NCBI RefSeq assembly: GCF_046105845.1
Contig: NZ_CP151004.1
Length of the DNA stretch: 64,000 nucleotides
Strand: one strand, 5' to 3'
DNA from: Escherichia coli
Lineage (GTDB): Bacteria; Pseudomonadota; Gammaproteobacteria; Enterobacterales; Enterobacteriaceae
This document shows, piece after piece, positions 61,425 through 61,533 of the stretch. The notes under the pieces were generated by a model that was not told where the DNA came from, made no database searches, and saw nothing but the letters and a program-made list of their open reading frames with translations. A program made the translations under genes and the position numbers. The stretch's first letter is position 1. Each line of letters starts with the position of its first letter.

Positions 61425-61432
61425 TCCGCCCC

Positions 61433-61469
61433 CTGGGTGTATATACAGTTATGCTGTGAGTATATACAG
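61433..61469. promoter_or_regulatory. Two tandem LexA boxes in the lexA promoter
   Basis: On the lexA strand CTGTATATACTCACAG and CTGTATATACACCCAG, each CTG-N10-CAG, 9 to 45 nt upstream of lexA ATG. Confidence 0.9.
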
Positions 61470-61533
61470 CAAAAGGCGATTTTGGAACCATAAACTGCAC
61501 AATAAACCAGAGATTTATCGAAATCTGGAAGGG

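Follow-up and report, generated by a model that had tools for sequence, protein, structure and literature searches.

Tandem LexA boxes at the lexA promoter of an Escherichia coli chromosome segment, and a conserved hairpin at the lexA-dinF junction

The window analyzed here, i.e. the whole stretch of 64,000 nucleotides, is a segment of the E. coli chromosome with ~97.5% identity to K-12, and its orientation is reversed relative to the K-12 coordinates. A megablast comparison with K-12 positions 4,254,000–4,322,000 gives collinear blocks of 95–98% identity, and the strain overall is ~2.5% diverged. Identity to K-12 is lower at the phn end of the window (95.3%) than elsewhere (97.4–98.2%). Two K-12 segments are absent. 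One is ~6.8 kb in length (K-12 positions 4,306,822–4,313,662, missing at window positions 12075–12284) and comprises the als operon, alsR and part of rpiB; the other is ~0.5 kb between gltP and yjcO (window positions ~22671–22709). An Rfam scan shows three matches at gathering score, i.e. the sraL/RyjA sRNA adjoining soxR (40502–40642, plus strand), the fdhF selenocysteine insertion element (20151–20205, plus strand) and a REP-derived naRNA4 element (2528–2608, minus strand). The same scan gives no match at the lexA control region or at the lexA-dinF junction.

The region of interest contains three genes:

61534–61902, upstream of lexA: dgkA (from the ORF list and the K-12 annotation)
60816–61424, minus strand: lexA coding sequence, 202 aa plus stop codon (from the ORF list, the RefSeq annotation of homologous places, identity with K-12 and PDB matches)
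59418–60797, minus strand: dinF as annotated, a MATE-family transporter of 459 aa (from the ORF list and the K-12 annotation)

A 1.4-kb query around the lexA upstream region has a match in 5425 of 5426 complete E. coli genomes, and the genes annotated beneath these matches are lexA, dgkA, dinF and plsB. The LexA protein encoded in the window is identical to that of K-12 and has PDB matches at E = 1e-129 to the solved structures 3JSO, 3JSP and 3K3R of E. coli LexA and its operator complexes. Thus the cognate repressor is encoded in the same genome as the boxes described below. DinF differs from its K-12 counterpart at 4 of 459 residues.

The A of the lexA start codon is at position 61424 on the minus strand. 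Since lexA is on the minus strand, the plus strand coordinates used in a preliminary description of this DNA display the reverse complement of the familiar operator. That description placed two CTG-N10-CAG boxes at 9 to 45 nt upstream of lexA, and both are found there, exactly at the distances given. The control region has the following elements:

61482–61487, minus strand: putative lexA −35 hexamer TTCCAA (read from the sequence; it lies in a near-invariant GGTTCCAAAAT across 56 distinct enteric sequences listed)
61459–61464, minus strand: putative lexA −10 hexamer TATACT, inside the distal box (read from the sequence; invariant in the enteric alignment)
61452–61471, minus strand: distal LexA box (lexA operator 1), 20-mer TGCTGTATATACTCACAGCA (from sequence, first matrix rank and K-12 identity)
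61431–61450, minus strand: proximal LexA box (lexA operator 2), 20-mer AACTGTATATACACCCAGGG (from sequence, second matrix rank and K-12 identity)
61425–61432, minus strand: purine-rich ribosome-binding region GGGGCGGA, flanked by the proximal box and the ATG (from sequence and conservation)

Each box has a 16-bp palindromic CTG-N10-CAG core with an A+T-rich center, in keeping with the gammaproteobacterial SOS box consensus TACTG(TA)5CAGTA. The proximal core is at 61433–61448 (plus strand CTGGGTGTATATACAG, minus strand CTGTATATACACCCAG), which is −24 to −9 from the lexA ATG, and the distal core is at 61454–61469 (plus strand CTGTGAGTATATACAG, minus strand CTGTATATACTCACAG), or −45 to −30. The box centers are 21 bp apart and the spacer between the cores is 5 nt (CATAA). 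On the minus strand the order is GGTTCCAAAATCGCCTTTTG CTGTATATACTCACAG CATAA CTGTATATACACCCAG GGGGCGGA ATG.

The spacing between TTCCAA and TATACT is 17 nt and both hexamers are conserved. A generic sigma-70 scan of positions 61300–61700 called no promoter. This is due to the −35 hexamer, which matches TTGACA at only three of six positions; the hexamers were therefore read by hand, backed by their conservation in enteric bacteria. The hexamer spacing predicts a transcription start at ~61452, at an A of the CATAA spacer and 28 nt upstream of the ATG. The distal box overlaps the putative lexA promoter, the position looked for in an SOS box. The proximal box covers the early part of the predicted 5′ UTR and abuts the ribosome-binding region.

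The preliminary description proposed scoring the boxes with a LexA weight matrix. A symmetrised matrix of 20 positions was constructed from 17 E. coli sites in Table 4 of PMC3009722. These sites are MEME motifs found upstream of UV-induced genes, and the distal box is listed there as lexA. The lexA entry was removed before training and uvrA/ssb is absent from Table 4, thus neither site could influence the matrix. The best four of the 64,000 positions are:

Rank 1, 61452–61471, 19.77 bits: distal lexA box
Rank 2, 61431–61450, 18.68 bits: proximal lexA box
Rank 3, 44594–44613, 17.30 bits: uvrA/ssb box
Rank 4, 30822–30841, 12.14 bits: next best site

The 17 training sites score 12.6–29.6 bits and both lexA boxes fall inside this range. 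From exact score distributions, the numbers of sites expected per 64 kb at the three top scores are 0.008, 0.015 and 0.034, and the single-position probabilities of the two lexA box scores are 1e-7 to 2e-7. Among 300 dinucleotide shuffles, nine had any site of at least 17 bits. HI-like values are 6.4 for the distal and 8.0 for the proximal box. Fernandez de Henestrosa et al. in 2000 reportedly gave HI values of 6.34 and 8.32 for the two E. coli lexA boxes. A value of HI < 15 has been used to recognize LexA sites (PMC11002266), and both boxes resemble known sites by this measure (HI-like values below about 15) as well as by matrix score.

Two simpler searches were set aside in favor of the matrix. 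The bare CTG-N10-CAG pattern was too loose, with 23 matches in the window vs 13.8 expected, mostly G+C-rich and inside genes. With the stricter pattern CTGT-N8-ACAG the distal box is the sole match, at a rate compatible with chance. Two weaker matrix sites, TATTGTTTTTCACGACAGTA at 30822–30841 in the nrfA-acs intergenic region (12.1 bits) and GGCTGTTTTTTTATCCATTC at 21916–21935 in the fdhF-yjcO intergenic region (11.4 bits), are at chance level (0.5–0.7 expected per window) and were not counted as operators.

The third-ranking site is the single LexA box of the divergent uvrA-ssb intergenic region:

44594–44613, in the divergent intergenic region: uvrA/ssb LexA box TACTGTATATTCATTCAGGT (from sequence, ORFs, K-12 identity and third matrix rank)

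This box is 84 nt before the uvrA ATG (44697, plus strand) and 152–171 nt before the ssb ATG (44442, minus strand), and it is identical to that of K-12. A single box common to uvrA and ssb has been described with an HI of 6.98, at ~170 nt from ssb and overlapping the uvrA −35 element; ssb itself is weakly SOS-dependent (PMC9505508). The only difference from K-12 in the uvrA-ssb intergenic region is in a T-run at ~44455–44462 before the ssb ribosome-binding site, which has 8 T vs 7 T. With the two lexA boxes there are three SOS operators between positions 44594 and 61471, a distance of 16.9 kb, which bears out an earlier count of three within 17 kb. No further matrix site above chance level is present in the 64-kb window.

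The operator and promoter block is base-for-base identical to that of K-12, the other comparison that had been proposed, and the dgkA-lexA region matches MG1655 from ~−98 to +18. The only dgkA-lexA intergenic difference from K-12 is one base at −72; another is found in the coding end of dgkA. The 86 bp that span both boxes and the promoter occur with 100% identity in 5331 of 5425 complete E. coli genomes.

Conservation beyond the species was analyzed with a DNA-pattern scan of a 100,044-species collection for two CTGTATAT-N5-CAG boxes 0–15 nt apart. The pattern is found in at least 120 places, nearly all in Gammaproteobacteria. By tblastn, a lexA homologue follows on the same strand in 106 of the 120 listed places, and in 101 of these it is no more than 60 nt away. 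The remaining 14 listed places show no lexA in the adjacent DNA searched, e.g. in Marinobacter (L021, L026, L071 and L089), Providencia (L063) and an ANME-1 archaeal contig (L077). As a pattern-selected sample, the matches listed say nothing on how often lexA occurs without two boxes.

Among the matches listed, 58 loci from ~25 enteric genera encode a LexA at least 85% identical to that of E. coli. The 5-nt spacer is found in all 58, 8 nt separate the proximal box from the ATG in 55, and the entire 37-nt two-box module has the E. coli sequence in 53. The scan pattern fixes 22 box positions, so conservation at those positions is ascertained and not observed; the 15 free positions of the module show 98% identity across the 56 distinct enteric sequences listed. 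In the same 56 sequences the identity is 97% in the 8 nt before the ATG, 82% in the −35 region and 64% upstream of −64. On this alignment the lexA control region is a clear phylogenetic footprint.

Lineages with a LexA of 57–77% identity (Pseudomonas, Microbulbifer, Saccharospirillum, Halieaceae and others), among the matches listed, also have two boxes, with spacers of 0–4 nt.

The two boxes are almost certainly the LexA operators at the lexA promoter of E. coli and jointly constitute a negative autoregulatory switch. It is very improbable that the distal box is the sole working operator and that the proximal box is conserved as part of the 5′ UTR and ribosome-binding region and not for LexA. 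In HI-like value the proximal box is weaker than the distal one, and it abuts the conserved ribosome-binding sequence; in Salmonella it has an HI of 14.48 vs 7.94 for the distal box (PMC8072944) and was missed by FIMO. Against this, its score of 18.7 bits is inside the range of validated sites, and both arms of the palindrome (CTGT...CCAG) are conserved, not just the arm beside the ribosome-binding site. An adjoining second box also recurs at lexA in distant Gammaproteobacteria with differing 5′ UTRs. The proximal box was found independently by MEME upstream of the UV-induced lexA-dinF transcript (PMC3009722, Table 7). The lexA gene is reported to harbor two SOS boxes (PMC2994835), and PlexA, with its two boxes, displays moderate cooperativity with a Hill coefficient of 1.5 ± 0.2 (PMC5152588); a measured coefficient above 1 fits two sites.

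Hardly more credible is a three-operator array, with a third LexA box at 61495–61510 on the plus strand (minus strand CTGGTTTATTGTGCAG, −86 to −71). This is an exact CTG-N10-CAG located 25 nt beyond the distal box, and the T-rich core of the stretch is moderately conserved. However it scores only 5.57 bits, a level at which ~7.7 sites are expected per 64 kb, and its HI-like value is 14–18. The CTG-to-CAG spacing shifts in other genera (e.g. CCTGTTTTTTGTGCAG in Citrobacter) and the CAG is lost in others (GCTCAA, GCTTAA). The candidate was rejected on its low score and unconserved spacing. The surrounding T-rich stretch, TGGTTT(A/T)TTGTGC at 61488–61510 on the minus strand (−86 to −64), is just upstream of the −35 hexamer and is moderately conserved in enteric genera. 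An UP-like element of the lexA promoter, or the tail of a weak dgkA terminator (CCAGA...TCTGG followed by TTTATT), would be a better explanation of the conserved T-run.

That both motifs are chance matches with no regulatory role is next to impossible: the bare pattern is common in the window, with its excess over expectation, but score statistics and conservation refute this reading, as the two sites, which score 19.8 and 18.7 bits, have their centers 21 bp apart immediately in front of lexA, equal the K-12 operators base for base, and form a module that is invariant across enteric genera while its flanks diverge.

The dinF gene is 3′ of lexA on the same strand, with a gap of 18 nt to its annotated ATG and 72 nt to a conserved ATG further downstream. 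The lexA-dinF junction displays no promoter-like site and no LexA site. The short distance, the shared strand and the lack of a separate dinF promoter are those of an operon, and dinF has been reported to be co-transcribed with lexA (PMC6590174; PMC3327717). The two genes appear as one continuous UV-induced transcript on tiling arrays (PMC3009722, Fig. 4). Ciprofloxacin induces them in parallel (PMC11002266, Table 1), and methylglyoxal raises RNA polymerase occupancy across lexA-dinF (PMC3739934). The lexA-dinF operon of the preliminary description needs one qualification, a strong and conserved hairpin between the genes:

60776–60805, minus strand: terminator-like hairpin of 13 pairs with a U-rich tail (from a terminator scan), which starts 11 nt after the lexA stop codon

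The predicted fold has a free energy of −24.9 kcal/mol (z = −3.7), and none of 200 shuffled sequences is as stable. Among 50 distinct enteric lexA-dinF junctions listed, a hairpin of at most −10 kcal/mol occupies the same position in 48, with a differing stem sequence, and 33 of these 48 have at least four U in the following 8 nt. A hairpin of −15 kcal/mol or lower is found in 43 of the 50 listed junctions vs 1% of shuffled controls.

The annotated dinF ATG (60797) is inside the hairpin stem. The dinF start that is conserved across genera (M-x-DKALW) corresponds to the ATG at 60743, which is 23–37 nt past the hairpin and gives a protein of 441 aa. The hairpin loop of E. albertii is shorter by 1 nt, and the upstream dinF ATG is thereby out of frame. 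From these comparisons dinF is probably annotated with a start 18 codons too early and DinF is probably 441 aa in length, not 459 aa.

Presence of the hairpin between the genes suggests that the lexA-dinF operon probably has an internal partial terminator, and together with the continuous induced transcript it points to read-through of this terminator. The fuller reading, in which the hairpin is a second, unannotated control point that acts as a partial terminator or attenuator setting the ratio of lexA to dinF, with the real dinF start at 60743, is one for which the prospects appear evenly balanced. No description of a terminator at the lexA-dinF junction was found in the literature searched; the original 1981 lexA sequence papers may mention it. 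The hairpin and the probably over-extended dinF start are a modest point of annotation.

Binding of LexA, its cooperativity and induction by damage would be as described in the literature for the identical K-12 sequence. By this analogy, each 16-bp palindrome would bind one LexA dimer. LexA on the distal box, which holds the −10 hexamer TATACT, would block RNA polymerase, and this block would be reinforced by LexA on the proximal box, over ~+5 to +20 of the transcript. With centers 21 bp apart, about two helical turns, both dimers would be on the same face of the DNA, which fits the moderate cooperativity reported for the lexA promoter. Upon DNA damage, RecA-ssDNA filaments would trigger self-cleavage of LexA and the operators would become empty. 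Transcription of lexA would follow, and that of dinF by read-through. LexA would then be replenished, and repression would therefore resume after the damage signal ends. Ciprofloxacin has been found to induce lexA by up to 3.5 log2 units (PMC11002266).

The double operator of lexA is already known, and the window contains this textbook feature in unchanged form, the classic autoregulatory operator of the earlier account: the boxes are those of K-12, the downstream open reading frame encodes LexA and two SOS boxes are on record. It counts among the founding examples of negative autoregulation and the SOS regulon; its recovery here has little significance beyond correct annotation. The main use of the analysis is as a positive control, in that a matrix blind to lexA and uvrA recovers exactly the three known operators. 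This recovery, with nothing else above chance, supports applying the same matrix elsewhere.

Compared with the lexA operators of E. coli K-12 MG1655, those in the window have the same sequence, spacing, distance to the ATG, promoter hexamers and downstream LexA protein, and there is no difference inside the control region. The lexA gene of Salmonella Typhimurium has the same number of boxes at the same distances when these are counted as 20-mers; its boxes have been placed 6 and 27 bp upstream of the start codon (PMC8072944, Table 1). The Salmonella flanks upstream of −64 and downstream of lexA are diverged. The uvrA/ssb promoter region displays a box of the same motif family which likewise overlaps promoter elements; however it has one box for two divergent genes, unlike the lexA promoter with its two.

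Pseudomonas, Marinobacter-like bacteria, Microbulbifer, Saccharospirillum and other Gammaproteobacteria likewise have two strong tandem boxes directly upstream of lexA. Among the matches listed, the spacer at these non-enteric lexA promoters is 3 nt (31 loci with lexA), 4 nt (11 loci) or 0–1 nt (4 loci). The box centers are 16–20 bp apart compared with 21 in E. coli, and the distance to the ATG is variable. Spacer length appears lineage-specific among the matches listed: Enterobacteriaceae and two Pasteurellaceae have 5 nt, Pseudomonas, Microbulbifer and Saccharospirillum 3 nt, several uncultured Gammaproteobacteria 4 nt and a few others 0–1 nt. Thus the same-face geometry of the enteric module does not appear to be a universal requirement for a two-box lexA promoter.
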